DNA of 58,910 bases from a virus. Numbering within the stretch: the first letter of the stretch is position 1; each line of letters begins with the position of its first letter. A program made the position numbers and the translations under genes. Under the pieces are notes generated by a model that saw only the letters and a list, made by a program, of their open reading frames with translations, searched no databases and was not told where the DNA came from. The DNA lies in the IMG/VR virus record IMGVR_UViG_3300017694_000001, positions 1 to 58,910 of that record; one strand, given 5' to 3'. Positions 4,496-39,341 of the stretch are shown here, one piece after another.

Positions 4496-4918
4496 ATGCC
4501 CACCCTCGCAATGCTGCTCCAATCGCTCGCCCCACTACTGCAAGCTACCTCTGCTGCCCAAAGTGCTGACGTGCGGTTTATGGAGTGGGCCATTCGCCTG
4601 GCCCCCATCCTCATTACCATCGTCATTTACATGCGTGCCCCGTCACGCGAAAGCGAGAAGAAGCGTGAAAAAGACCTTTCTGACCTGTTAACCTGGAAAG
4701 AGCTACAGCAGGCCATGAACACCCAACACCAGCTTGCTATGGAGAAACTAGGGGATGAGGTGAAGCGCAATCACCAAGAGACGGAGAGCAAGTTCAGTCA
4801 GTTCGGGGACATGAAAACCGACGTGGCCGTGATGAAAAATCAGATGCAGGGACAGGCCGACACGCTGCGGGTGCTCAATGAGAAGATGGACCGGCTATTA
4901 AACCAGAACAACAAATGA
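4496..4918 (+). CDS. Membrane-anchored coiled-coil protein of the lysis cassette
   Basis: 140 aa. One hydrophobic helix (WAIRLAPILITIVIYM) followed by a charged heptad-like C-terminus. ATGA overlap with the next gene. Confidence 0.5.
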   Translation: MPTLAMLLQSLAPLLQATSAAQSADVRFMEWAIRLAPILITIVIYMRAPSRESEKKREKDLSDLLTWKELQQAMNTQHQLAMEKLGDEVKRNHQETESKFSQFGDMKTDVAVMKNQMQGQADTLRVLNEKMDRLLNQNNK

Positions 4919-5244
4919 GCGCCACCCGCCCGCCCTGGTATCTACGCCCCCTTTACAGCCGGGGCAGCTACTCGCCCCGGCTCACAATGGCCTGGCTCGT
5001 GGTGCTGTTCGCCCTGTGGCTTACCCGTCGCTGGATAACGACCCCCGCGCAAATCCTCAACGGGGTGCTGGTGCAGCCCCCATCCGTAGCGGAGCTAGTC
5101 GGCATCCTGCTAGGATTTGCCAGCGTGCTGCTTGGGATGGGCACCTTTCAAAAAATCAAGCTAGGCGATACGGCCCCGTCAGCTGGTGAGATAGAATCTG
5201 AGGCCGGTAGCCCGAAGCCCGAAGATGACCAATCGACCACCTAA
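4915..5244 (+). CDS. Holin candidate (two TM helices)
   Basis: 109 aa. TM segments MAWLVVLFALWLT and LVGILLGFASVLLGMGTF, with a charged C-terminal tail. Located upstream of the endolysin. Confidence 0.5.
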   Translation: MSATRPPWYLRPLYSRGSYSPRLTMAWLVVLFALWLTRRWITTPAQILNGVLVQPPSVAELVGILLGFASVLLGMGTFQKIKLGDTAPSAGEIESEAGSPKPEDDQSTT

Positions 5245-5306: not shown

Positions 5307-5417
5307 ATGCAGCCTACACCACCAGTACCTGACCGCCTGGCCTTCCTACTGGCCGCTGCCCTGCTGCTGGTCGCGGCTGGCTACCTGCTTTTATTTAACT
5401 ATCACTTGAAGCCATGA
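5307..5417 (+). CDS. Small single-TM protein (36 aa, below ORF-track cutoff)
   Basis: Hand translation: MQPTPPVPDRLAFLLAAALLLVAAGYLLLFNYHLKP. Its TGA overlaps the ATG at 5414 (ATGA coupling). Confidence 0.35.
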   Translation: MQPTPPVPDRLAFLLAAALLLVAAGYLLLFNYHLKP

Positions 5418-6127
5418 CCAAAATTCAGAAACACGCCAACCGCGCCGGCCTGCTGGGCTTCGTGGCGCTGCTCTTGGTGCTAGCGCTCGCCTTCACAAGC
5501 TGCGGCACTCATAAAAAACTCTCCCCCGCCGCCCCGCCGCAATCCGAGCCCGTTAGGGCCGCTGGCCAGACACCAGGCATCAAGCATCAGACACCAGACA
5601 CCAGTAACGTAGTGGTGCAGAACCCGCGCACGCTGCTAGACAAGGTGCTAGGCCGCAAGCCACCGGTGGCCGTGTACCCGGCTGGCACACCGGTGAAGGC
5701 TGGCAAGAAAAGCACCATCACGATTAACAACGTCACCGGTGGGCAAACCAATACGACCAACACCGCCGGCAAGAACGCCACGGCTGGCACCGGCGCCACC
5801 GGTGGGGGGAAGGCAGGCGCACCAGTGGCCGGCACCGGTGGCACGCTCACCAATATTGAAAAGGCCAAGGCACCGGTGAGCACTGGCACCGGTGACGCTA
5901 CCGACCTATCGGGCACCGGTGCCGCTTCCAATATCAAAGGCGACGGTAACGCACCGGTGCTCACCAACGCACCGGTGGAAGCCCCCGACTGGAAAGCGCA
6001 ACTGGCAGCGGGCTTTGCTACACCGGTGGGCAAGGCGCTGGGCTTGGTGGTGTTCGCCTGCTTTGGGTACGGCGTGTACCGGTTGTGGCCCCTGCTGCGG
6101 CGCAAATCAACTTCTAACCAAGTATAA
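5414..6127 (+). CDS. Unimolecular-spanin-like protein: lipoprotein signal, low-complexity linker, C-terminal TM anchor
   Basis: 237 aa. N-terminal signal with Cys (..LLVLALAFTSCGT..), a G/T/A/P/V-rich middle, and a C-terminal TM (ALGLVVFACFGYGVYRLWPLL) followed by RRK. Lies immediately upstream of the endolysin. Confidence 0.55.
   Translation: MTKIQKHANRAGLLGFVALLLVLALAFTSCGTHKKLSPAAPPQSEPVRAAGQTPGIKHQTPDTSNVVVQNPRTLLDKVLGRKPPVAVYPAGTPVKAGKKSTITINNVTGGQTNTTNTAGKNATAGTGATGGGKAGAPVAGTGGTLTNIEKAKAPVSTGTGDATDLSGTGAASNIKGDGNAPVLTNAPVEAPDWKAQLAAGFATPVGKALGLVVFACFGYGVYRLWPLLRRKSTSNQV
5661..6028. repeat. Array of 11 exact CACCGGTG palindromes
   Basis: Copies start at 5661, 5688, 5734, 5797, 5833, 5871, 5887, 5914, 5952, 5970 and 6021. 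Six are read as Pro-Val (CCG GTG) and five as Thr-Gly (ACC GGT) in the host gene. Confidence 0.9.
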
Positions 6128-6130
6128 CCT

Positions 6131-6607
6131 ATGGCAACCGACACGCGCAACTGCCTCGCCCACTACGGCGACCCCTCCGCGCCAGCCTTCGCGGCGAAGT
6201 GGCTGGCAAAGCACCCTATCCCGGCCGCCGTGCTGCCCTACTTCCCGCTCTACGGCGGGACGGTACGGCCCACGGCTATCTACATGAACAAGTTCGCGAT
6301 GGCCGCGCTCGATGCCGTGCTGCTGGACTTGCTGGCTACCGGCCTGATTAAAGAGCTAAAGACCTACGACGGCTGCCATAATGTGCGGAAAAAGCGCGGC
6401 GTGAACGAGTACAGCATCCACAGCTGGGGGCTGGCCCTGGACTTCAACGCCGCCCTTAATCCGTTGGGGGTGAAATGGGGCAGCCGAAAAGGGATGTTCA
6501 GCAAAGCCTTTCTCGATACCTGGCGCAAGCACGGATGGACCTGCGGGGCCGACTTCCCAACGGGGGATGCAATGCACTTTCAATTCACCAACTCCTTTCC
6601 TAAATAA
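6131..6607 (+). CDS. Endolysin, zinc peptidase M15 family (VanY / L-Ala-D-Glu peptidase-like)
   Basis: 158 aa. Metal-ligand motifs SIHSWGLALDFN (H-x6-D) and DAMHFQF (His). Position is within the lysis cassette. Confidence 0.85.
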   Translation: MATDTRNCLAHYGDPSAPAFAAKWLAKHPIPAAVLPYFPLYGGTVRPTAIYMNKFAMAALDAVLLDLLATGLIKELKTYDGCHNVRKKRGVNEYSIHSWGLALDFNAALNPLGVKWGSRKGMFSKAFLDTWRKHGWTCGADFPTGDAMHFQFTNSFPK

Positions 6608-6615
6608 CCCTCCCC

Positions 6616-6810
6616 ATGCAACCCACTCCCATCAAACCCCTGAACGTCTTCGCCTACCTCGTGGCGGGCCTCGTCGCTGTCGCCTTCGTGGCAGGCACCA
6701 TTACCTACCTCATAGCCGGGGAAGAGGCTGCGGCCACGGCCGGCAAAATCAGCCTAGTGGCCGGCCCGATTATCGGCGGGCTCTTTGGCCTTTCGCGCCG
6801 ATTCCAATAG
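6616..6810 (+). CDS. Small two-TM membrane protein (holin/antiholin candidate)
   Basis: 64 aa. Segments VFAYLVAGLVAVAFVAGTITYLI and ISLVAGPIIGGLFGL. It is the last gene of the rightward lysis block. Confidence 0.45.
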   Translation: MQPTPIKPLNVFAYLVAGLVAVAFVAGTITYLIAGEEAAATAGKISLVAGPIIGGLFGLSRRFQ

Positions 6811-6852
6811 CCCACCCGCCCCGCCCTCTCCTGTCTTGGTGCTAGTGGGCGC

Positions 6853-6893
6853 AAAAAAGCCCGTACCCCTTTTTATCAAGGCCGGGCTTTTAT
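6853..6893. terminator. Imperfect bidirectional hairpin terminator between convergent genes
   Basis: AAAAGCCCG (6855..6863) pairs with CGGGCTTTT (6883..6891). A-run on the left and T-run on the right. The loop is long (19 nt), so the call is moderate. Confidence 0.45.
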
Positions 6894-7584: not shown

Positions 7585-8103
7585 CTAGCCGATGGGGTTG
7601 TGGTCAAGCCTCAGTGGTCCCATGAAAGGCTTCGGGGCGCGGGCGGGCGCGGCAAAGTAGTCTTTCGCCCAAATGAAAGTGCCGATGCCAGCATTGTCCG
7701 CGAACTCCTTATCAGAATCCATGTCGCCCACCATGACAGAGCCTTTCAAGTCTGGCTGAAGCCGCAGTGCCACCTCGTAAGCCATACCGGGCAAGGGCTT
7801 GCGCTTGTAGTCGTAGTCATACGCCACGCAGGTATGCACTTCAGCGCGGGTGTGGTTTCGCAGCACCGTGACAATGGAGAGCAAGCGGCTCTCTACATCT
7901 TCTTTCGTTTGAAACCCGGCCGCCACGCCGCCTTGATTGGTCACGATGATAATAGGCCACCCGGTTATGCCCTGCACCTTGCGGTAGAGGCGGTCTATCA
8001 CGTCAGGTATAAACTCCCAATCGTCTTTGTCGCGGGGGAACGTGTCGCCCGACTTGGGATGGATTAGCGTGTGGTCGAGGTCAAGGAAGAGCGCCTTTTT
8101 CAT
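7585..8103 (-). CDS. HAD-IIIA family phosphatase (polynucleotide 3'-phosphatase / GmhB-like)
   Basis: 172 aa. Motif I FLDLDHTLI (DxDxT), motif II IIIVTNQGG, KRKPLPGM, and motif IV VGDMDSDKE. The pattern TLI..KSG..FP...DW....TNQ matches PNKP-type 3'-phosphatase domains. Confidence 0.8.
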   Translation of the reverse strand: MKKALFLDLDHTLIHPKSGDTFPRDKDDWEFIPDVIDRLYRKVQGITGWPIIIVTNQGGVAAGFQTKEDVESRLLSIVTVLRNHTRAEVHTCVAYDYDYKRKPLPGMAYEVALRLQPDLKGSVMVGDMDSDKEFADNAGIGTFIWAKDYFAAPARAPKPFMGPLRLDHNPIG

Positions 8104-8249
8104 ATCGTGAACTGCTTGCCGCAGTCTTTACAGGTATGGGTGTAGAAGTACCACGGCTCGCCGCCATTATTGCTTTGCGAGTAGTCGTGCACGTCAAAAA
8201 ATCGGGCGCTAAACCAGCAAGTAAAGCGCGAAAAGAGACCGAATATCAT
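8100..8249 (-). CDS. Small protein (49 aa, below track cutoff), possible Cys-containing knuckle
   Basis: Hand translation: MIFGLFSRFTCWFSARFFDVHDYSQSNNGGEPWYFYTHTCKDCGKQFTI. Its TGA overlaps the ATG of the phosphatase gene (ATGA). Confidence 0.35.
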   Translation of the reverse strand: MIFGLFSRFTCWFSARFFDVHDYSQSNNGGEPWYFYTHTCKDCGKQFTI

Positions 8250-8283
8250 GCATCTAATTTACATATAAATACGTATAAATCAA

Positions 8284-8709
8284 ATGTTTGACTACATAAT
8301 TTGCGCTTTTTTTTGGCCCGCTCTACTGTTCTTTCTGGCCTACCCCCAGGGCGTGCTAATGCCCGCCGTGCGGCGCACGCCACCCGGCCCCGAGGCCACT
8401 AGCCAGGCCCGTGCCCTGCACCTCGGCCTCGTGCTGGCCTACTTCCTGCCCCTAGTCCTGGTAGCCGTGTTCGCCCGCCCTCACCTGCCCCTGCACGCTG
8501 TAGTGGCCGTGCTCGTGCGGCTGGCCGGCTTCGACCCCATCCTCAACCACTACGCCGGAGACGAGTCGTTCCACGTCGGCCAAACGGCCACCACCGACAA
8601 GCTGCTTCGGAAGCTCTCCGCCACCCACCCCGAACGGCTATCCGTCGCCCTGCGCCTAGCTGCTGGTGCCCTGGCAGTAGCCGCAGTAGTAGTGGCGGCC
8701 GGCCGGTAG
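8284..8709 (+). CDS. Polytopic membrane protein
   Basis: 141 aa with at least 4 hydrophobic segments (IICAFFWPALLFFLAY, LGLVLAYFLPLVLVAVFA, AVVAVLVRLAGF, ALAVAAVVVAA). Confidence 0.55.
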   Translation: MFDYIICAFFWPALLFFLAYPQGVLMPAVRRTPPGPEATSQARALHLGLVLAYFLPLVLVAVFARPHLPLHAVVAVLVRLAGFDPILNHYAGDESFHVGQTATTDKLLRKLSATHPERLSVALRLAAGALAVAAVVVAAGR

Positions 8710-13478: not shown

Positions 13479-13876
13479 AGAGTAAGAGAGTAGCTTGATA
13501 CTCGTCTTTCTATGATGCCGCAAGGTGGCGTTTTCTTATATGAAGTTGCTATGAATAGTATAGATCGGCAGCAAAATATTGCTATTGACGGCCTTATTTT
13601 TTAGCCCGTCCAGTTCCTAAAATGGGACGGCTTCTGGTGCCCAAAAAGGGGGTATCCTGACAGGTACCCTGGCATACCGCCATGCGCGTTGATAAAAAAG
13701 GGCGCTACCGTGCCAACAGGGCGTTTTTGTGATTGCCGCCAGCCTGCTATGCTAGAAATATGGGATTACCTTCGGTATTCCAAATTCCCGCAAATATTAG
13801 GCTGGCAGCAACGCAGGCCGGGTTTCGGCGGGACACCTTTTTACTAGGTATCCTAGCCGGGCACCTGGCCCGTGTT

Positions 13877-14449: not shown

Positions 14450-14475
14450 AGGGCAAAGATTGGGTATCACATTAC

Positions 14476-14489
14476 TTTGAAATATCAAA
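14476..14489. promoter_or_regulatory. Operator candidate O1 (TTTGAAATATCAAA)
   Basis: TTTGA-N4-TCAAA inverted repeat in the cI/cro intergenic region. On the minus strand it reads TTTGATATTTCAAA. Confidence 0.55.
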
Positions 14490-14498
14490 CTAATGTGC

Positions 14499-14506
14499 TA
14501 TATTTG
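14499..14506 (+). promoter_or_regulatory. Rightward -7 box TATATTTG (Bacteroidota TAnnTTTG consensus)
   Basis: Perfect match to TAnnTTTG, 84 nt upstream of the ATG at 14590. Confidence 0.45.
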
Positions 14507-14528
14507 TCGTAAACATCTAGCGCAACAG

Positions 14529-14542
14529 TTTGATATAGCTGG
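14529..14542. promoter_or_regulatory. Operator candidate O2 (TTTGATATAGCTGG, half-site conserved)
   Basis: Shares TTTGATAT with O1 and O3. The right half is degenerate. Confidence 0.4.
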
Positions 14543-14554
14543 CTATTTGTACGA

Positions 14555-14562
14555 CAAAAGTA
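14555..14562 (-). promoter_or_regulatory. Leftward -7 box TACTTTTG (TAnnTTTG) for the repressor gene
   Basis: Perfect consensus on the minus strand. It lies to the right of the rightward box, so the two promoters face each other. Confidence 0.4.
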
Positions 14563-14570
14563 CACACACG

Positions 14571-14584
14571 TTTGATACTTCAAA
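14571..14584. promoter_or_regulatory. Operator candidate O3 (TTTGATACTTCAAA)
   Basis: TTTGA-N4-TCAAA inverted repeat just upstream of the ATG at 14590. Confidence 0.55.
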
Positions 14585-14589
14585 GCAAT

Positions 14590-14877
14590 ATGATGGAAAA
14601 TCAAAAGAAACGCGGCCCGCGTAGAACGGAAAGAGCGGCCTCTTTTCACGCGAAAGTTGCTGAAATCAAGCACTTACTTCCGCGACAGTACAGCGAGTTA
14701 GCCACGCAAATAATTTCTGGCTTGGATGCCTCATTAGTGAGATATGCTGTTGCAGGGCGTCGGGAGTACTGGGAAGCCCTGCCTGCACTGCGTATTGTGG
14801 CTGGTATCGACCCGCTGCCGAAGGGTATCACGCTAAAGCCGGTGGGCCGCGCCGTCAAGCAGTCTGTGGGCGCATGA
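14590..14877 (+). CDS. First early-operon gene (cro-position protein), function unknown
   Basis: 95 aa from the ATG at 14590 (the track ORF begins at TTG 14572, inside operator O3). Basic N-terminus. ATGA coupling to the methylase gene. Confidence 0.55.
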   Translation: MMENQKKRGPRRTERAASFHAKVAEIKHLLPRQYSELATQIISGLDASLVRYAVAGRREYWEALPALRIVAGIDPLPKGITLKPVGRAVKQSVGA

Positions 14878-15641
14878 AGCCGGGCCTACACTTGGGCTGT
14901 TGCCTCGACCTCATGCGCGCCTTGCCCGCCGCCAGCGTACACCTCATAATCTGTGATAGTCCTTATGCGAACACGGATTTGGCCTTTGACAAGCAGCCGA
15001 TTGATTGGCCTGCTTGGTGGATAGAGGCAAGGCGGGTGCTGGCGCCGACTGGCGTAATAGTTTGCTTTGCTGCCGAGGCGTTTACGTTGGACTTAATTGC
15101 CAGCAATCGGGAGTGGTACCGGTACCGGCGCGTATGGGTAAAGAGCAAAGCTAGCCGCTACCTTGACGCAGAATGGCGGCCCCTAGCGGCCCACGAAGAT
15201 GTAATAATCTTTGCCCCAGCCATTAGGAGCGCGACCTACAATGCGCAGAAAACAACTTATACTGGCCCACCCAAAAGCACGAAACGCAAGGATACGAAGC
15301 AAAGCCACTATAAGAGCCAACGCTTTGCTGCTGAGTACAAAGATGATGGTACCCGGCACCCCACAACGATACTCAGCTTTGCCAGTGTCGGTACCACGGC
15401 CCCGCACTTCAACCCAACAGCCAAGCCGCTGGCCCTCATTCAAGACCTGGTGCTAACCTACTCGAACCGGGGCGACACGGTACTGGAGCCCTTTGCTGGC
15501 GACGCACCCACCGCCCACGCCTGCCAGAACACCGGCCGTACCTACTACGGTGCTGAAATCAACCTGCAGCAATACGAATGGTCGGCGGCCCACCTAGCCC
15601 GCAAAGCCCCGCTTTTCGCCCTTGAACCTGTAACCGCTTAG
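14874..15641 (+). CDS. DNA methyltransferase (N6-adenine/N4-cytosine, beta class), orphan
   Basis: 255 aa. Motif IV CDSPY (DPPY-like) near the N-terminus and motif I VLEPFAGDAPTA near the C-terminus, the order typical of the N6_N4_Mtase family. No adjacent nuclease. Confidence 0.85.
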   Translation: MKPGLHLGCCLDLMRALPAASVHLIICDSPYANTDLAFDKQPIDWPAWWIEARRVLAPTGVIVCFAAEAFTLDLIASNREWYRYRRVWVKSKASRYLDAEWRPLAAHEDVIIFAPAIRSATYNAQKTTYTGPPKSTKRKDTKQSHYKSQRFAAEYKDDGTRHPTTILSFASVGTTAPHFNPTAKPLALIQDLVLTYSNRGDTVLEPFAGDAPTAHACQNTGRTYYGAEINLQQYEWSAAHLARKAPLFALEPVTA

Positions 15642-28973: not shown

Positions 28974-29598
28974 CAAGAGCGCCTTTCTGGAAAAGCATCT
29001 TGAAGATGTTCTGTGGACTAACCCCGATGCCTGCTATGAGTCGGGGCTATGCTGCTTTGAGCCTCGTGCGTTTGGCAAGTACGTGCAGCGAATGCGGCAA
29101 CCTAGCCTATACCCTTATGGCATTGCCGATATTATTCAGATAGTACACGCTGATTCATGTCCTGACGTATTGGTGCAGGTAATCGAGTGCAAGCGCGACG
29201 TTATCGGCCTGGCAGCATACGCGCAGGCCAAGCGCTACCTAGCGGCCCTCAAATGCGCCCTTCAAGACCTGGTAGATATCACAGAGATTCGCGGAGGCCG
29301 GGTGCAATGGGAGTGCATCCTGATAGGCAAGCGCCTTGAAATGAACAGCGATTTCGTGTATGTACTCAACGAAGACAAGGCGTGTAAGGTCTACACTTAT
29401 GAAGAAGCTAATCAGGCTGTATCCTTCACAAAGTCCGGCCGCCGCTGGCATAAGCCCGCGGAAGCCAATAGCACAGACCTGGCGAAGGTAGCGGCCAGGG
29501 TTCAAGGCTATATAGGCTATGTAAGTGCTCAGCTTGAGGCCGACGAAGAGCTGTTTGCCCGTATGGAAGCTGCAAAAGAAAGGGGGCTAGTTGAATGA
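28966..29598 (+). CDS. PD-(D/E)xK-type nuclease candidate
   Basis: 210 aa with GTG start. ..GIADIIQIV..(17 aa)..VQVIECKRD.. fits the D...(D/E)-x-K motif. Confidence 0.5.
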   Translation: MSSKSAFLEKHLEDVLWTNPDACYESGLCCFEPRAFGKYVQRMRQPSLYPYGIADIIQIVHADSCPDVLVQVIECKRDVIGLAAYAQAKRYLAALKCALQDLVDITEIRGGRVQWECILIGKRLEMNSDFVYVLNEDKACKVYTYEEANQAVSFTKSGRRWHKPAEANSTDLAKVAARVQGYIGYVSAQLEADEELFARMEAAKERGLVE

Positions 29599-30683
29599 AG
29601 CCTGCCCTGCCCATCCGCAAGCGCCTGTCTGCGCTCACCTGCATCAAGGCTGGCCCTAAAGCCGTGCTCATTGAGGTATGCGAGTTGCACGAGAACGGCG
29701 GGCGCGGGTGCTTTGCCAGTAACGGCGCGCTCAGCAAGAAGCTGGGCGTGTCGGTGGCTACCGTGACGCGCACCGTAGCCTCGCTGACCTCTTGGGGGCT
29801 GCTGGCGACGCGCATAGTACCCGCCGAGGCCAACCGCCGCTACCTATGCCCTACGGCTGCTGTGCGAGCCTGCTATGCAGCTGCCAACGAAGCTCAGCAA
29901 CTGGCCGCCGTAGCGGAATTGACTATAGTCAAAAGTAGCCCCGAAACAGAATTGACTATAGTCGAAAACGAGACTGACTATAGTCAAAACGGTGAACTGA
30001 CTATAGTCAAAAATGGAGTTGACTATAGTCAAAACGCCTCGCGCGTAATAGGAGAAGACCAAAAGAAGACCATTCTAGAAGCCCAATTACAAAGCCTGCG
30101 TGAAGGGCTGGCTGAGGCAGAAGACGAATTGACTGCTGCGCAAAAAAAAATAGTGGAGCTGGAAGCTGAAAATGCCAGGCTTCGCGCACTAGGGGCGGCG
30201 GGCACAATGACTAGTCATCAGGGTGGGCGCTGGGGCTACGACCCGGCCGAGATACACCCGGCCCTGGTGCTGCCCTTCGATACACCGGACTTCCGCGAAG
30301 CCTGGATAGCCTACCGCACTTTCCGCGAACAGCAAAAGCATCCGCAGTTCACCGGCGGAATGCAGGAGCAGGCAGCCCTACAGCACTTAGGCAACCTAGC
30401 CGGAGGCAGCGAGGCCGAGGCGCTGGAAATTATCAAGTACAACATCAGAGGAGGGTGGAAAGACCTCTACAAACCCGATGCAAAACGCACTTCAACCCAG
30501 CAGTCAGCCCCAGGGCAGTCAGGCGGTGGCCAGAAGCCAACACTCAATGCCGTTGCAATGGCTGGCACCCTTGCTAGCCGGCGATTCCAGCAGCCAGGAG
30601 GTAGCGCTGGCGATACTGGACAAACAACGGGGACTCACCCCGGCCAGGGCACAGGAGGCACCCCAGGTTTCGACGCTCACTAG
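29595..30683 (+). CDS. Replication initiator (winged-HTH, lambda O-like organisation with internal origin)
   Basis: 362 aa. N-terminal wHTH (..GALSKKLGVSVATVTRTVASLTSWGLL..). Five iterons lie inside the gene. Confidence 0.65.
   Translation: MKPALPIRKRLSALTCIKAGPKAVLIEVCELHENGGRGCFASNGALSKKLGVSVATVTRTVASLTSWGLLATRIVPAEANRRYLCPTAAVRACYAAANEAQQLAAVAELTIVKSSPETELTIVENETDYSQNGELTIVKNGVDYSQNASRVIGEDQKKTILEAQLQSLREGLAEAEDELTAAQKKIVELEAENARLRALGAAGTMTSHQGGRWGYDPAEIHPALVLPFDTPDFREAWIAYRTFREQQKHPQFTGGMQEQAALQHLGNLAGGSEAEALEIIKYNIRGGWKDLYKPDAKRTSTQQSAPGQSGGGQKPTLNAVAMAGTLASRRFQQPGGSAGDTGQTTGTHPGQGTGGTPGFDAH
29931..30030. repeat. Origin iterons: 5 x (T/C)TGACTATAGTC(A/G)AAA with 22-23-bp spacing
   Basis: The 10-bp palindrome GACTATAGTC occurs at 29931, 29954, 29976, 29999 and 30021. 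It is read in two frames (ELTIVK / TDYSQN), so it is constrained at the DNA level. Confidence 0.85.
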
Positions 30684-36506: not shown

Positions 36507-36746
36507 ATGAGCCTGCAACCCATTTCCCACAAAGCCTACCGCGCCACCGTCAACTACAGTACGCCCCCCGACCGCCAACCCGCGCCCGAACAAGGCCAGC
36601 AAGTAGTGGCGCGGGCGACTTGGAAAATGGACGAAGATGAAATGTTCCCGGGGGAATTTGCCTGCTACATCGAGGAGCCCGCTGGCTTTCCGCTCTGGCT
36701 ACCCCAGCGCGATTTGATTTTTCACGAAGAAGTCGCCACCCCATGA
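36507..36746 (+). CDS. Hypothetical protein
   Basis: 79 aa. Junction reads TAG-CCCCGCC-ATG. Confidence 0.5.
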   Translation: MSLQPISHKAYRATVNYSTPPDRQPAPEQGQQVVARATWKMDEDEMFPGEFACYIEEPAGFPLWLPQRDLIFHEEVATP

Positions 36747-37309
36747 AACCACCCACCCACGGCCCCCAAAGCTTCCACGGTGCCCCCGGCCTGCGCGAGG
36801 GTGGTAGCCGAAGCTTCTATGAAGTAGCCCAGCAAGCGCCGGTCGTACCGCCGACACCCTTGCCCCCACCCGTTCCCGCTCGCCCGAAGCCCGCCCTGCC
36901 GCCCACGTTGACGCTGCGGTATGACGAGCGCGGGCCCATCTGCGAGCTATCTAAAGCGCTGCGCGCCCTGCTGCCCCCCCTGAAAGAGTGCGAACGGGTA
37001 CTCTTGGTAGTGCCACACCAGCGCGGCGGGCAATGGTATCTGGATACGAACCCCAAGCCAGGCGCTGGGTATCGCATTCCCAATGCCGAGCGGGCGCAGT
37101 TCCGGGTACAGCCAATAAGCAAAATTCACTTCATGCGCCCGGTACCTGTATTGGAAGGTGCTGGCGGGCGGCCTGGCAAGGGCGAAGACCGCCGGGGCGG
37201 GTTGGCGGCGGTAAGCAATACCAATGAAGCGGTGGGCCTGCTGCGCTTTCGCTTGGCGCTGGAAGTGCCCGGCCATCCCGGCTACTACCAGTTGCTACGG
37301 GAGTTGTAG
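36743..37309 (+). CDS. Hypothetical Pro-rich protein (last early gene)
   Basis: 188 aa with ATGA coupling. Its stop codon lies inside copy 1 of the late 21-mer. Confidence 0.6.
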   Translation: MKPPTHGPQSFHGAPGLREGGSRSFYEVAQQAPVVPPTPLPPPVPARPKPALPPTLTLRYDERGPICELSKALRALLPPLKECERVLLVVPHQRGGQWYLDTNPKPGAGYRIPNAERAQFRVQPISKIHFMRPVPVLEGAGGRPGKGEDRRGGLAAVSNTNEAVGLLRFRLALEVPGHPGYYQLLREL

Positions 37310-37365
37310 CGCGGTATCGGGTGGATGGGCCACAGCCGGGTGCGGGCCCGGGGCAATTTCGGGGC
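37295..37365 (+). promoter_or_regulatory. Late leader module, copy 1 (21-mer CTACGGGAGTTGTAGCGCGGT plus CAATTTC box)
   Basis: Exact 21-mer at 37295..37315. A/T box at 37354..37360. The GTG start at 37366 is 71 nt from the first base of the motif. Confidence 0.7.
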
Positions 37366-37887
37366 GTGGACCCGACAAAACCCGACACTCCAACACCCGC
37401 GCAACAGCCGCTCGCCACTTGGCGGGCTGCTTTCATTAAGGCGCTGTCTGAAAATAGCAACGTGAGCGCGGCGGCGCGGGCGGCGGAAGTGAACCGGCAA
37501 TACTGCTATGAGTGCCGCGCTAATGACCCTAGTTTTGCTGCTGACTGGGATGAGGCACTAAAAATAGCAGTTGAAGGACTAGAAGAAAGGGCTTGGAATC
37601 GTGCCAAGTTTGCCGATATTCAGTACAGGTTTACCAAGACGGGCGAACCGATAATGCACCCGGTTACGGGTGAGCCCTACTACGAGCACGTAGGCAGCGA
37701 CACGGTTCTTCTGCGCCTGCTAGAAGCCCACAAGCCCGACCTGTACAAGCAGCGGAAAGAATTGACTGGCAAGGATGGCGCGCCGCTCGTGCCCCCGCCG
37801 AACACCGATAACTTATCGCGTGAAGACCTGCTGGCTATTCTGGCAGTGCGCCGCAAGCTAGCCGGCACGGAGGGCCAGGATACGTGA
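37366..37887 (+). CDS. terS: Terminase small subunit (HTH type)
   Basis: ..WRAAFIKALSENSNVSAAARAAEVNRQYCYECRANDPSFAADWDEAL.. is an HTH. Lies immediately upstream of, and overlapping, terL. GTG 37366 is chosen by analogy with the other three late modules (the track ORF starts at 37321). Confidence 0.65.
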   Translation: MDPTKPDTPTPAQQPLATWRAAFIKALSENSNVSAAARAAEVNRQYCYECRANDPSFAADWDEALKIAVEGLEERAWNRAKFADIQYRFTKTGEPIMHPVTGEPYYEHVGSDTVLLRLLEAHKPDLYKQRKELTGKDGAPLVPPPNTDNLSREDLLAILAVRRKLAGTEGQDT

Positions 37888-39341
37888 GCGCCATTGATAT
37901 TCTAGCGGGCCTGCCTACTGAGCAGCAACTAGTAGCTGCCCTGTGCCGCCGCCGCTTCTATGACTTTTTCCTTGAGTTCTGGGAAACTATCGAAGCCGCC
38001 GACCTCGTGCCCAACTGGCACATTGAATTCATTTGCGACCAATTGCAAGAGGTGTATGAGGCGTGGGCCAGGGGCGAAAGCCAGGCCGACGTGCTTATCA
38101 ACGTGCCCCCCGGCAGCAGCAAGAGTACGACCGTAACCCAGCTGTTTCCGGCCTGGCTGTGGGTAAAGAACGCCACCGTGCGCGTTATCAGCAGCTCCTA
38201 CGCCGCCGACCTGAGCACGGCGCACGCTGTCAAAACCAGGGACTGCATCACATCCGACAAGTTCAAGGCCGTCTTTCCCGGTTTAATCCAAATAAAACAC
38301 GACGAAGGTGGGAAAACCGCTTACCGCAACACGGAAAAAGGCCAACGCTTCACTACTTCTACCGGGGGCCGGGTAACGGGTATGCACGGTGATTTCATCA
38401 TTGTGGACGACCCAATAAACCCGGAAGAATCGGAGTCCGAGGCTACCCGTTTTCGGGCTAACCGCTTCGTATCGAAGACGCTCAGCACGCGCAAAACCAA
38501 TAAGAAGCGCAGTGTCACCATCATGGTGATGCAGCGCCTGCACGAAGCCGACCCGGCCGGCACTTGGCTGGCGGGCAAGAAGCAGCTGCGCCACATCTGC
38601 CTGCCCGGCTTTTTGAGCGACGACGTACGCCCCGCAGAGGCACGCGATTATTATGTGGACGGCCTACTCGACGCTAACCGACTCGACTTGCAGGCCCTGA
38701 ATCGGCTGAAAGAAGACCTGGGCAGCTACGGCTATGCGGGCCAGATTCAGCAGCGTCCGAGCCCCGAGGGCGGCGGGAAGCTCAAAAAGACGTGGTTCCA
38801 CAAGATTAGCTGGCCGGACTTCCTAACGCTTACCAACGGCCAGAAGGTGGTATGGCAGTTCGATGCCGATACTGCTTTCACAGCTGACCAAAAGAACGAC
38901 CCTACCGGCATCATGTCCTCGGCCTACGTGGGTAATACACTCTACATCCGCTACGTGGAGTGGGTGCGTTTGGAAATGGGCCCACTGTGTCGCCACCTGC
39001 CAGAGTTCGTACAAAAGCACGGCTACACGGCGGACAGTATGCTCTACATTGAGCCCAAGGCCAACGGCAAAAGCACGGTGCAGATTATCCGCGAAAGCAC
39101 AAAGCTCAACGTGGCCGAAGCGCCTACCCCGGTAGGTTCCAAAATGGAGCGCGTCAACGCCGCCGCCCCCTTCGCGGAATCGCTGCGGGTAGTGCTCATC
39201 GATGGCAACTGGAACACGCCCTTTGTGGAAGAGCTGAGCGCCTTCCCCAACGCCGCCCACGACGAAAGCGCCGACTTGCTCACGCAGGCCATTCGGCGGC
39301 ACCAGCCACTTGAACAAAAGAAACAACGATGGGTAATCTGA
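37884..39341 (+). CDS. terL: Terminase large subunit
   Basis: 485 aa. Walker A-like VPPGSSKST, Walker B FIIVDDP, and MQRLHEAD. The C-terminal nuclease half has acidic residues. Confidence 0.9.
   Translation: MSAIDILAGLPTEQQLVAALCRRRFYDFFLEFWETIEAADLVPNWHIEFICDQLQEVYEAWARGESQADVLINVPPGSSKSTTVTQLFPAWLWVKNATVRVISSSYAADLSTAHAVKTRDCITSDKFKAVFPGLIQIKHDEGGKTAYRNTEKGQRFTTSTGGRVTGMHGDFIIVDDPINPEESESEATRFRANRFVSKTLSTRKTNKKRSVTIMVMQRLHEADPAGTWLAGKKQLRHICLPGFLSDDVRPAEARDYYVDGLLDANRLDLQALNRLKEDLGSYGYAGQIQQRPSPEGGGKLKKTWFHKISWPDFLTLTNGQKVVWQFDADTAFTADQKNDPTGIMSSAYVGNTLYIRYVEWVRLEMGPLCRHLPEFVQKHGYTADSMLYIEPKANGKSTVQIIRESTKLNVAEAPTPVGSKMERVNAAAPFAESLRVVLIDGNWNTPFVEELSAFPNAAHDESADLLTQAIRRHQPLEQKKQRWVI

Follow-up and report, generated by a model that had tools for sequence, protein, structure and literature searches.

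Why should one gene of a virus hold eleven exact copies of the same 8-bp palindrome, CACCGGTG, when the sequence around it holds none? The stretch in which this question arises is the IMG/VR virus record IMGVR_UViG_3300017694_000001, analysed over its whole 58,910 bases (hereafter 'the window'). An earlier note, made from the sequence alone, had placed the copies in the low-complexity linker of a spanin-like gene, read in two frames, and had proposed that the DNA word rather than a repeated peptide is selected. This proposal is borne out by codon randomisation, by the placement of rare codons and by a comparison of 12 orthologs, and we consider it well supported, and indeed highly probable, that selection acts on the DNA word itself. 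For the comparison, DNA was taken from the 12 orthologs (45–80% identical) and from three more distant homologs (L078, L079 and L214).

The palindrome array

An exact search of both strands of the 58,910 bases finds CACCGGTG 11 times, at precisely the starts listed in the earlier note and always within 5661–6028; no copy lies elsewhere in the window, so that the scan by eye reported there now rests on an exhaustive count. The near-copies which it had mentioned are also present, and the array thus reads as follows.

5661..6028: array of 11 CACCGGTG palindromes (exact search and sequence)
5661..5668: copy 1, cCA-CCG-GTG, Pro-Pro-Val
5688..5695: copy 2, aCA-CCG-GTG, Thr-Pro-Val; homologous position filled in 5 of 12 orthologs
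5734..5741: copy 3, gtC-ACC-GGT-Ggg, Val-Thr-Gly-Gly
5788..5795: near-copy CACCGGCG, Gly-Thr-Gly-Ala; left boundary of a 13-codon indel; exact word in L080, L001, L084 and L086
5797..5804: copy 4, gcC-ACC-GGT-Ggg, Ala-Thr-Gly-Gly
5820..5827: near-copy CACCAGTG, Ala-Pro-Val; exact word in L001
5833..5840: copy 5, ggC-ACC-GGT-Ggc, Gly-Thr-Gly-Gly; right boundary of the 13-codon indel
5871..5878: copy 6, gCA-CCG-GTG, Ala-Pro-Val
5887..5894: copy 7, ggC-ACC-GGT-Gac, Gly-Thr-Gly-Asp
5914..5921: copy 8, ggC-ACC-GGT-Gcc, Gly-Thr-Gly-Ala; inside the 12-bp palindrome GGCACCGGTGCC; 7 of 12 orthologs
5952..5959: copy 9, gCA-CCG-GTG, Ala-Pro-Val; 7 of 12 orthologs
5970..5977: copy 10, gCA-CCG-GTG, Ala-Pro-Val
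6021..6028: copy 11, aCA-CCG-GTG, Thr-Pro-Val; 8 of 12 orthologs

Relative to the open reading frame (ORF) 5414–6127, six copies are read as xCA-CCG-GTG (Pro-Val) and five as C-ACC-GGT-G (Thr-Gly), in agreement with the earlier note, and none of the 11 uses the third frame, which would encode His-Arg-Cys/Trp. The core ACCGGT occurs 15 times in the window, 12 of these inside the array gene, and one-mismatch copies of the word beyond the array are at background level. Chance is ruled out as the origin of the array by the codon randomisations described below and by 100 dinucleotide-preserving shuffles, a control that the earlier note had called for, in which the word occurred 1.15 times on average and six times at most. 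A simple tandem repeat is ruled out as well: the spacing is irregular (16–63 bp), Tandem Repeats Finder returns only a 27-bp scrap and no repeat array from the region, and the clusters of the word seen elsewhere are mostly regular single-frame repeats. Irregular spacing and two frames likewise separate the array from in-frame tandem peptide repeats (collagen-like and similar), which have a period that is a multiple of three and keep to one frame. In the same gene, just 5' of the array, there is a 7-bp repeat, CCAGACA, in 5.6 units (5566–5604; peptide QTPGIKHQTPDTS), a segment that is deleted or replaced in L001.

The encoded peptide does not account for the word

A pure protein-level effect would mean that x-Pro-Val and x-Thr-Gly are selected and that the word merely follows from codon or codon-pair preference, and the peptide motifs are indeed conserved in the family alignment. 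Synonymous-codon shuffling within the gene yields, however, a mean of only 0.95 copies (maximum 5), and codons drawn from genome-wide usage yield 0.26; the observed 11 copies were reached in 0 of 2000 randomisation trials, and the excess holds also in 11 of the 12 orthologs. Out of 13 positions at which the window protein permits the word, 11 hold it and the other two are one mismatch off. Codon choice at the motif sites, counted over the 12 orthologs and set against a genome-wide usage derived from crude ORF calls, is as follows.

Gly in x-Thr-Gly: GGT at 39 of 47 motif sites, 11% genome-wide
Ala before Pro-Val: GCA at 24 of 32 motif sites, 13% genome-wide
Thr before Pro-Val: ACA at 16 of 17 motif sites, 11% genome-wide
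Pro in x-Pro-Val: CCG at 48 of 59 motif sites, 30% genome-wide
Val in x-Pro-Val: GTG at 48 of 59 motif sites, 44% genome-wide
Thr in x-Thr-Gly: ACC at 41 of 47 motif sites, 41% genome-wide

The rare codons GGT, GCA and ACA are placed exactly where the word needs completing, and the other rare codons (GGA, GCT, ACT) are unused at the motif sites of the 12 orthologs. What matters is therefore the word and not the rarity of a codon, and selection for rare codons per se is ruled out. Since constraint extends to the outer bases (C at −1, a third codon position, in 35 of 37 cases, and G at +6, the third position of Val, in 35 of 45), the unit is the 8-mer and not merely ACCGGT. In all other genes of the window, Thr-Gly is written ACC-GGT in 0 of 84 cases and [ATPS]-Pro-Val is written NCA-CCG-GTG in 0 of 19. 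A natural control is provided by L214, in which the identical peptide AGTGATGGGK is encoded by GGC-ACC-GGC-GCC-ACC-GGG with 0 copies of the word. The distant L078 and L079 have 0 copies as well; these wordless homologs offer only two motif opportunities each as compared with 4–13 in the word-bearing ones, which suggests that the DNA shapes the peptide rather than the reverse. Randomisation, rare codons, the other genes and L214 taken together rule out peptide plus codon usage, or codon-pair preference, and we regard a purely protein-level origin as extremely improbable. A conserved ORF overlapping the gene, whether in a different frame or on the opposite strand, was also rejected, the alternative frames not being consistently open across the orthologs.

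Orthologs keep the word

The earlier note had suggested to compare orthologs in order to see whether the word is conserved while the peptide drifts. A protein search returned 24 homologs, all from metagenomes or metagenome-assembled genomes (MAGs), and a metagenome scan for additional orthologs gave three loci, one of them new. The 12 orthologs hold 11, 7, 7, 8, 6, 3, 4, 4, 7, 3, 2 and 6 copies; all 68 lie in the two benign frames, CACCGGTG is the commonest 8-mer in 11 of the 12 genes, and the flanks are essentially without it (one copy in 63 kb of the relatives' flanks). Four-fold-degenerate sites in identical residues show, between orthologs, an identity of 0.48 outside the motifs and of 0.70 inside; given the codon bias, the 48% outside the motifs amounts to saturation, so that the word is kept in 12 orthologs whose remaining synonymous sites are saturated. 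Among 106 synonymous opportunities, 68 are filled by the word and 27 are one mismatch off, where 2.1 would be expected (an occupancy of permitted positions of 64% versus 2%). Maintenance of the word by nucleotide-level selection across the phage family is well supported by these comparisons.

In an alignment that is imperfect, as the sequence is of low complexity, about 13 homologous positions are recognised, and presence of the word at them is patchy across the orthologs. The window and L001, for example, have only four positions in common, the differences being nearly all synonymous transitions. The presence of lineage-specific copies at non-homologous positions (column 259 in L001, columns 392 and 409 in L089, column 391 in L081/L084) implies that sites have been gained as well as kept, and new word sites have thus arisen independently and repeatedly. 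The commonest variants, CGCCGGTG (7) and CACCGGCG (5), represent one and the same duplex. As a finding that would speak against selection on the word, the earlier note had named relatives that keep the linker without the palindrome; the distant L078, L079 and L214 are of this kind, and the closer relatives all keep the word. To judge from this distribution, the array is a long-maintained property of one gene subfamily.

Growth of the array

When compared with the outgroups L078 and L079, which have a short form, the window clade carries a 13-codon insertion. At each of its two ends a copy of the word is split between ACC and GGT, a single copy spans the corresponding junction in the short form, and the insertion added three or four sites. 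Contexts of 11–12 nt are common to neighbours in two cases (GGCACCGGTGA at 5871 and 5887, AACGCACCGGTG at 5952 and 5970), and the context CCCACCGGTGCC occurs twice in L089. Some of the copies thus stem from local duplication or from templated copying that began at the word. The majority, however, stand in unrelated sequence contexts, and their rare codons persist where other synonymous sites are saturated, so that duplication alone is insufficient; local duplication, which the earlier note had offered as an alternative origin, applies to a part of the array. Shufflon-like inversion between copies was rejected, there being no reverse-complement similarity between orthologs beyond the palindromes.

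The array-bearing gene and its lysis cassette

The gene lies in a lysis cassette that forms the final block of the late operon, with a terminator-like hairpin 3' of it (6845–6864) beyond which the genes converge.

4496..5244, + strand: two upstream lysis-cassette ORFs, one of 140 residues with a transmembrane domain (TMD) and a coiled coil, the other a membrane protein of 109 residues
5414..6127, + strand: array-bearing gene, 237 residues, lipoprotein signal with lipobox Cys30, C-terminal TMD, basic tail
6131..6607, + strand: endolysin, Peptidase_M15_4, starting 3 nt after the array-gene stop
6616..6810, + strand: small membrane protein, 64 residues, end of the cassette

Cys30 is invariant in 21 homologs, where a hydrophobic helix and then a lipobox of the type L-[AS]-[GAS] (FTSC in the window) come before it. 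The middle of the protein is rich in Gly, Thr, Ala, Pro and Val, and its residues 104–176, whose code contains 7 of the 11 words, have a predicted local distance difference test (pLDDT) score below 50 (AlphaFold2, from a shallow alignment of 21 sequences); a C-terminal hydrophobic helix (residues 204–232) is followed by RRKS. The lipobox Cys, the C-terminal TMD, the low-confidence segment and the endolysin neighbour agree with the earlier description of a spanin-like gene with a low-complexity linker, and amount to a unimolecular-spanin-like architecture. The protein has no match in Pfam or PHROG and no tblastn match in 50,697 GenBank phage records, a search of GenBank phage DNA being likewise without match, so that an unassigned family of u-spanin-like lipoproteins is itself part of what this locus has to offer.

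At every locus (the window and 11 relatives' loci) the gene is found directly upstream of the endolysin gene, whose start lies 3–4 nt from the stop in all orthologs. The endolysin families at the relatives' loci differ (M15_4, Amidase_2, DUF5675 and Glucosaminidase; DUF5675 plus Phage_lysozyme in L214), and free-standing HNH/NUMOD endonuclease genes are located just downstream in L001, L086 and L088. The N- and C-terminal halves of the spanin-like gene are themselves mosaic among the loci, and it is in the word-rich region that the junctions fall. The first ORF of the cassette (4496–4918), having an N-terminal TMD and then a long coiled-coil-like region, resembles an i-spanin or a holin regulator, and similar ORFs are present in L081, L082 and L213.

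A temperate phage with a palindrome-poor genome

By its gene content, the window is a temperate HK97-like siphovirus: it encodes (i) an integrase with Arm-DNA-bind_5, an HTH repressor, an antirepressor and an orphan N6/N4 methyltransferase, (ii) a sliding clamp and an HTH_36 initiator and (iii) a portal, MuF, S78 protease, HK97 capsid, tail tube and tape measure. The genes for DNA modification and packaging matter for what follows.

14874-15641: orphan beta-class N6/N4 DNA methyltransferase, early region; nearest solved relatives M.RsrI and CcrM
36743-37887: candidate TerS
37884-39341: TerL, Terminase_6-type

The best matches of TerL are to phages of Croceibacter, Riemerella, Cellulophaga and Chryseobacterium. 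The host should accordingly belong to the Bacteroidota, and may be a Hymenobacter-like bacterium of about 59% GC; integrase homologs were found in metagenomes or MAGs only, and no relative was among the matches listed in a scan of a genome collection. No nuclease gene was seen beside the methyltransferase. Counts of short palindromes in the window are as follows.

GATC: 1 observed (at 13563), about 135 expected
CTGCAG: 3 observed, about 28 expected
CACGTG: 2 observed, about 12 expected
GTGCAC: 1 observed, about 11–17 expected
CCATGG: 1 observed, about 9–18 expected
TCCGGA: 0 observed, 2–9 expected
ACCGGT outside the array gene: 3 observed, 11–15 expected

GATC is equally scarce in the relatives' loci (L001, L077–L089 and L210–L214; 0–1 each), and the depletion suggests heavy restriction pressure on this phage group. 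In a genome that purges palindromes, such a cluster of words is contrary to the general trend. The genome as a whole shows no excess of CCGG (414 observed, 473 expected), which speaks against a drive by very-short-patch-type repair. An operator of the immunity repressor was rejected as well, because the words of the immunity region are of an unrelated TTTGATA type: the divergent segment (14450–14590) that separates the HTH repressor from the rightward early genes has repeated TTTGATA(T)/ATATCAAA words, together with a TAnnTTTG-like box of the Bacteroidota promoter type.

Iterons, and the same word in other loci

The initiator gene of the window (29595–30683, HTH_36) contains five TGACTATAGTC(AAAA) iterons at 29920–30034, with the palindromic core GACTATAGTC, which are read in two frames (ELTIVK and TDYSQN). 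These iterons are probably the replication origin, embedded in the initiator gene just as the lambda ori lies inside gene O, where iterons occupy the initiator's own gene. With an origin that has its own iterons at 29.9–30.0 kb, a replication origin at the array was rejected.

Clusters of at least three words were found at 73 viral and at least 120 genomic loci, most of them being regular single-frame peptide repeats. In L057 (IMGVR_UViG_3300044606_000078), an unrelated viral contig of 58.9 kb, 11 copies in units of about 18 bp lie at 700–1280, towards the 5' end of an HTH_36-like gene that directly follows a parA-like gene, and are read as APV and TGA; the appearance is that of an iteron or centromere array built on the same core. 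Tandem units of 57 bp, each with two copies of CACCGGTG in different frames, occur in L021 (6144–6282) and L008 (5527–5591) inside a winged-helix replisome-organiser-like gene that has SSB-like and DnaB-like genes on either side, and constitute a probable origin. The same core is thus a probable protein-binding iteron in other phages.

What may read the array

We favour, with a rough probability of 0.4, the reading that the array consists of recognition sites for a symmetric DNA-binding protein for which a disordered spacer in the periplasm leaves room. An exactly strand-symmetric site is characteristic of a dimeric reader of double-stranded DNA. The 11 words would then form a cis-acting DNA element with a strand-symmetric reader, the simplest candidate for which would be a dimeric sequence-specific DNA-binding protein and not an enzyme or the mRNA itself. 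The element would be written into the spacer-coding part of a unimolecular-spanin-like lysis gene, where a poorly ordered periplasmic spacer presumably tolerates the word in two frames that give harmless residues (x-Pro-Val and x-Thr-Gly). It is this tolerance that would allow selection on the DNA to fix rare codons and even to shape the peptide. The array might serve as a roadblock or silencer before the translationally coupled endolysin gene at the end of the late operon or, alternatively, as a landing pad for a genome-handling protein. Precedent for binding arrays in coding DNA may be seen in the initiator-gene iterons of the window and in the arrays of L057 and L021/L008.

Several observations weigh against this reading. 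No reader protein for CACCGGTG was found in this analysis, no gene of the ParA/ParB or ParM/ParR type was present among about 46 Pfam-scanned ORFs (which did not cover all small ORFs), the window has no homolog of the L021 and L057 initiators, and the word is absent from all intergenic control regions of the window. With 16–63 bp between copies (9 bp in L001), the array shows no helical phasing of the kind known from iterons or centromeres. The orthologs have anything from 2 to 11 copies, and the element is absent from the sister lineages L078, L079 and L214. L213, with an integrase 80% identical to that of the window, has a different lysis region and no word in 12 kb around the integrase; the array therefore travels with the gene and is not required by every relative. 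Furthermore, the 12 orthologs are related and not statistically independent. A gene-bound, dispensable element would also fit a gene-specific (RNA-level) or a neutral explanation. None of the roles which the earlier note had considered gains clear support: no partition genes were found among the scanned ORFs, and a pac site at the array (5.7–6.0 kb) is improbable, the terminase genes lying some 27 kb from it.

The favoured reading has to be weighed against three others, of which an mRNA element ranks next and appears to us possible, if rather unlikely. The 11 self-complementary, GC-rich 8-mers would form alternative 8-bp helices in the late transcript, which could tune stability or translation of the spanin-like and endolysin genes. 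Since any copy can pair with any other, no lineage would be free to change the word; the element does travel with the gene and is absent from relatives carrying other lysis modules, and the 3–4 nt between stop and endolysin start fit translational coupling. Neighbouring copies could make hairpins with loops of 8–19 nt, and the region folds somewhat better than shuffles (z = −2.25). This z-score is modest, however, and some gain is expected from the word content alone; the 8-bp helices are not extended by flanking complementarity, the one-mismatch variants show no G-U bias (about 10 compatible versus 15 incompatible), and the arms of an RNA helix need not each be palindromic. The region has no match in Rfam, so that a known RNA family was rejected.

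Doubtful to a like degree, and both behind the mRNA element, are a cluster of enzyme targets and a functionless expansion. The former would be made up of sites (ACCGGT, CRCCGGYG) for a DNA methyltransferase and/or a restriction enzyme of the CCGG family, and would serve as an epigenetic mark, comparable to the Dam sites of P1 pac, or in the interplay of phage and host restriction. The match of the word to CRCCGGYG and ACCGGT-type sites, pointed out in the earlier note, is confirmed: the word coincides with the primary site of SgrAI and includes that of AgeI (PMC9788392). The variants are mostly of the CRCCGGYG type, though these are simply the synonymous transitions open at those positions. 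The phage encodes the orphan methyltransferase at 14874–15641, which might act on the word, and the purging of palindromes elsewhere (ACCGGT, TCCGGA, GATC) argues that restriction pressure is real. Irregular or overlapping spacing is no obstacle to enzymes, which act site by site. A cleavable cluster should nevertheless be strongly counter-selected, yet this one is conserved, and the restriction-target role proposed in the earlier note is hence a poor fit, since clustered cleavable sites should be harmful and the phage purges such sites elsewhere. If the array had no function at all, slippage, duplication and short-patch templated copying would have spread the word through a mutation-tolerant low-complexity region, and copying drive (concerted evolution) would let it persist. 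The insertion bounded exactly by copies of the word, the matching contexts of some neighbours and the dispensability of this gene-specific element in sister lineages all speak for such a history. Against it stand the unrelated contexts of most copies, the retention of the word in 12 lineages at otherwise saturated synonymous sites, its high occupancy and the genome-wide frequency of CCGG; moreover, we know of no drive that keeps an 8-mer at rates above point mutation. A DNA-binding array thus ranks first in our view, and an effect at the peptide level last.

Comparison with known systems

The array fails at least one defining, testable feature of most known systems with which it was compared, namely iterons, P1 pac and HIP1. 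Initiator-gene iterons resemble it as short dyad-symmetric binding words in coding DNA that are read in more than one frame; they differ by their units of 15–57 bp, their regular spacing and their location in or beside the initiator gene. The array, in contrast, is a bare 8-mer (nothing else is common to the copies, whose contexts differ) with irregular spacing, a lysis gene as its carrier, and the origin and initiator gene of the phage elsewhere.

The pac site of P1, described by Sternberg and Coulby, is said to comprise seven TGATCA/G hexamers with Dam sites inside pacA. It shares with the array the clustering of short palindromic, methylatable words within a coding gene, and it is in P1 a cis site for a DNA-handling protein; the terminase of the window, of the headful type (Terminase_6), adds to the likeness. 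The P1 site lies, however, in the small-terminase gene, whereas the array is remote from the terminase genes.

HIP1 (GCGATCGC) of cyanobacteria is an 8-bp palindrome selected irrespective of frame, with a function long unknown and a link to methyltransferases (PMC5861425, PMC4390886). Both words are 8-bp palindromes kept far above expectation through selection at the DNA level, but HIP1 is hyper-abundant genome-wide, whereas CACCGGTG is confined to one 368-bp stretch of the window, with 0 copies outside the gene in 58 kb. SgrAI recognises CRCCGGYG, cutting after CR, and AgeI recognises ACCGGT, cutting after A (PMC9788392, PMC2532715). CACCGGTG is identical to the primary SgrAI site and contains ACCGGT, and even its commonest variants fit CRCCGGYG. 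Clustered primary sites in cis would maximise cleavage of the SgrAI type, and a conserved cluster is thus the opposite of restriction avoidance. T1 gp11, finally, is the defining unimolecular spanin (PMC6139136), which the array protein resembles in its N-terminal lipoprotein signal, its C-terminal TMD, the lack of periplasmic Cys and a lysis cassette beside the endolysin; the array protein differs in having no sequence similarity to described spanin families and a middle that is predicted to be disordered and not beta-rich.

It is tempting to speculate, although we would put this somewhat below the favoured reading, that the array is a previously undescribed cis element: a protein-binding or epigenetically marked palindrome array in the spacer code of a spanin-like gene, in which selection is strong enough to dictate amino acids, and which controls the lysis cassette (as a roadblock before the endolysin gene, for example) or marks the genome for some step of DNA handling and is mobile with the lysis module among temperate phages of Bacteroidota. 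The locus offers in any case a clean natural example of selection at the DNA level which overrides codon usage and moulds a protein sequence, in a phage otherwise cleared of palindromes. Should there be a reader protein, the array would add a new site for regulation or genome handling to the lysis cassettes of Bacteroidota phages, which have hardly been studied, and the 'low-complexity linkers' of lysis proteins could be carriers of cis elements. In the literature we found no paper describing such an array in a lysis gene, and CACCGGTG was met there only as the site of a restriction enzyme or within primers for cloning.

The phenomenon may have a second, independent instance in L032 (IMGVR_UViG_3300009545_000044, GC 0.67), in which 12 irregularly spaced copies (7782–8287) fall within the Pro-rich linker of a membrane protein that is DUF2637-like and has an HTH-like C-terminus. 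There, 9 of the 12 x-Pro-Val motifs are written CCA-CCG-GTG, although CCA makes up only about 11–17% of the Pro codons.

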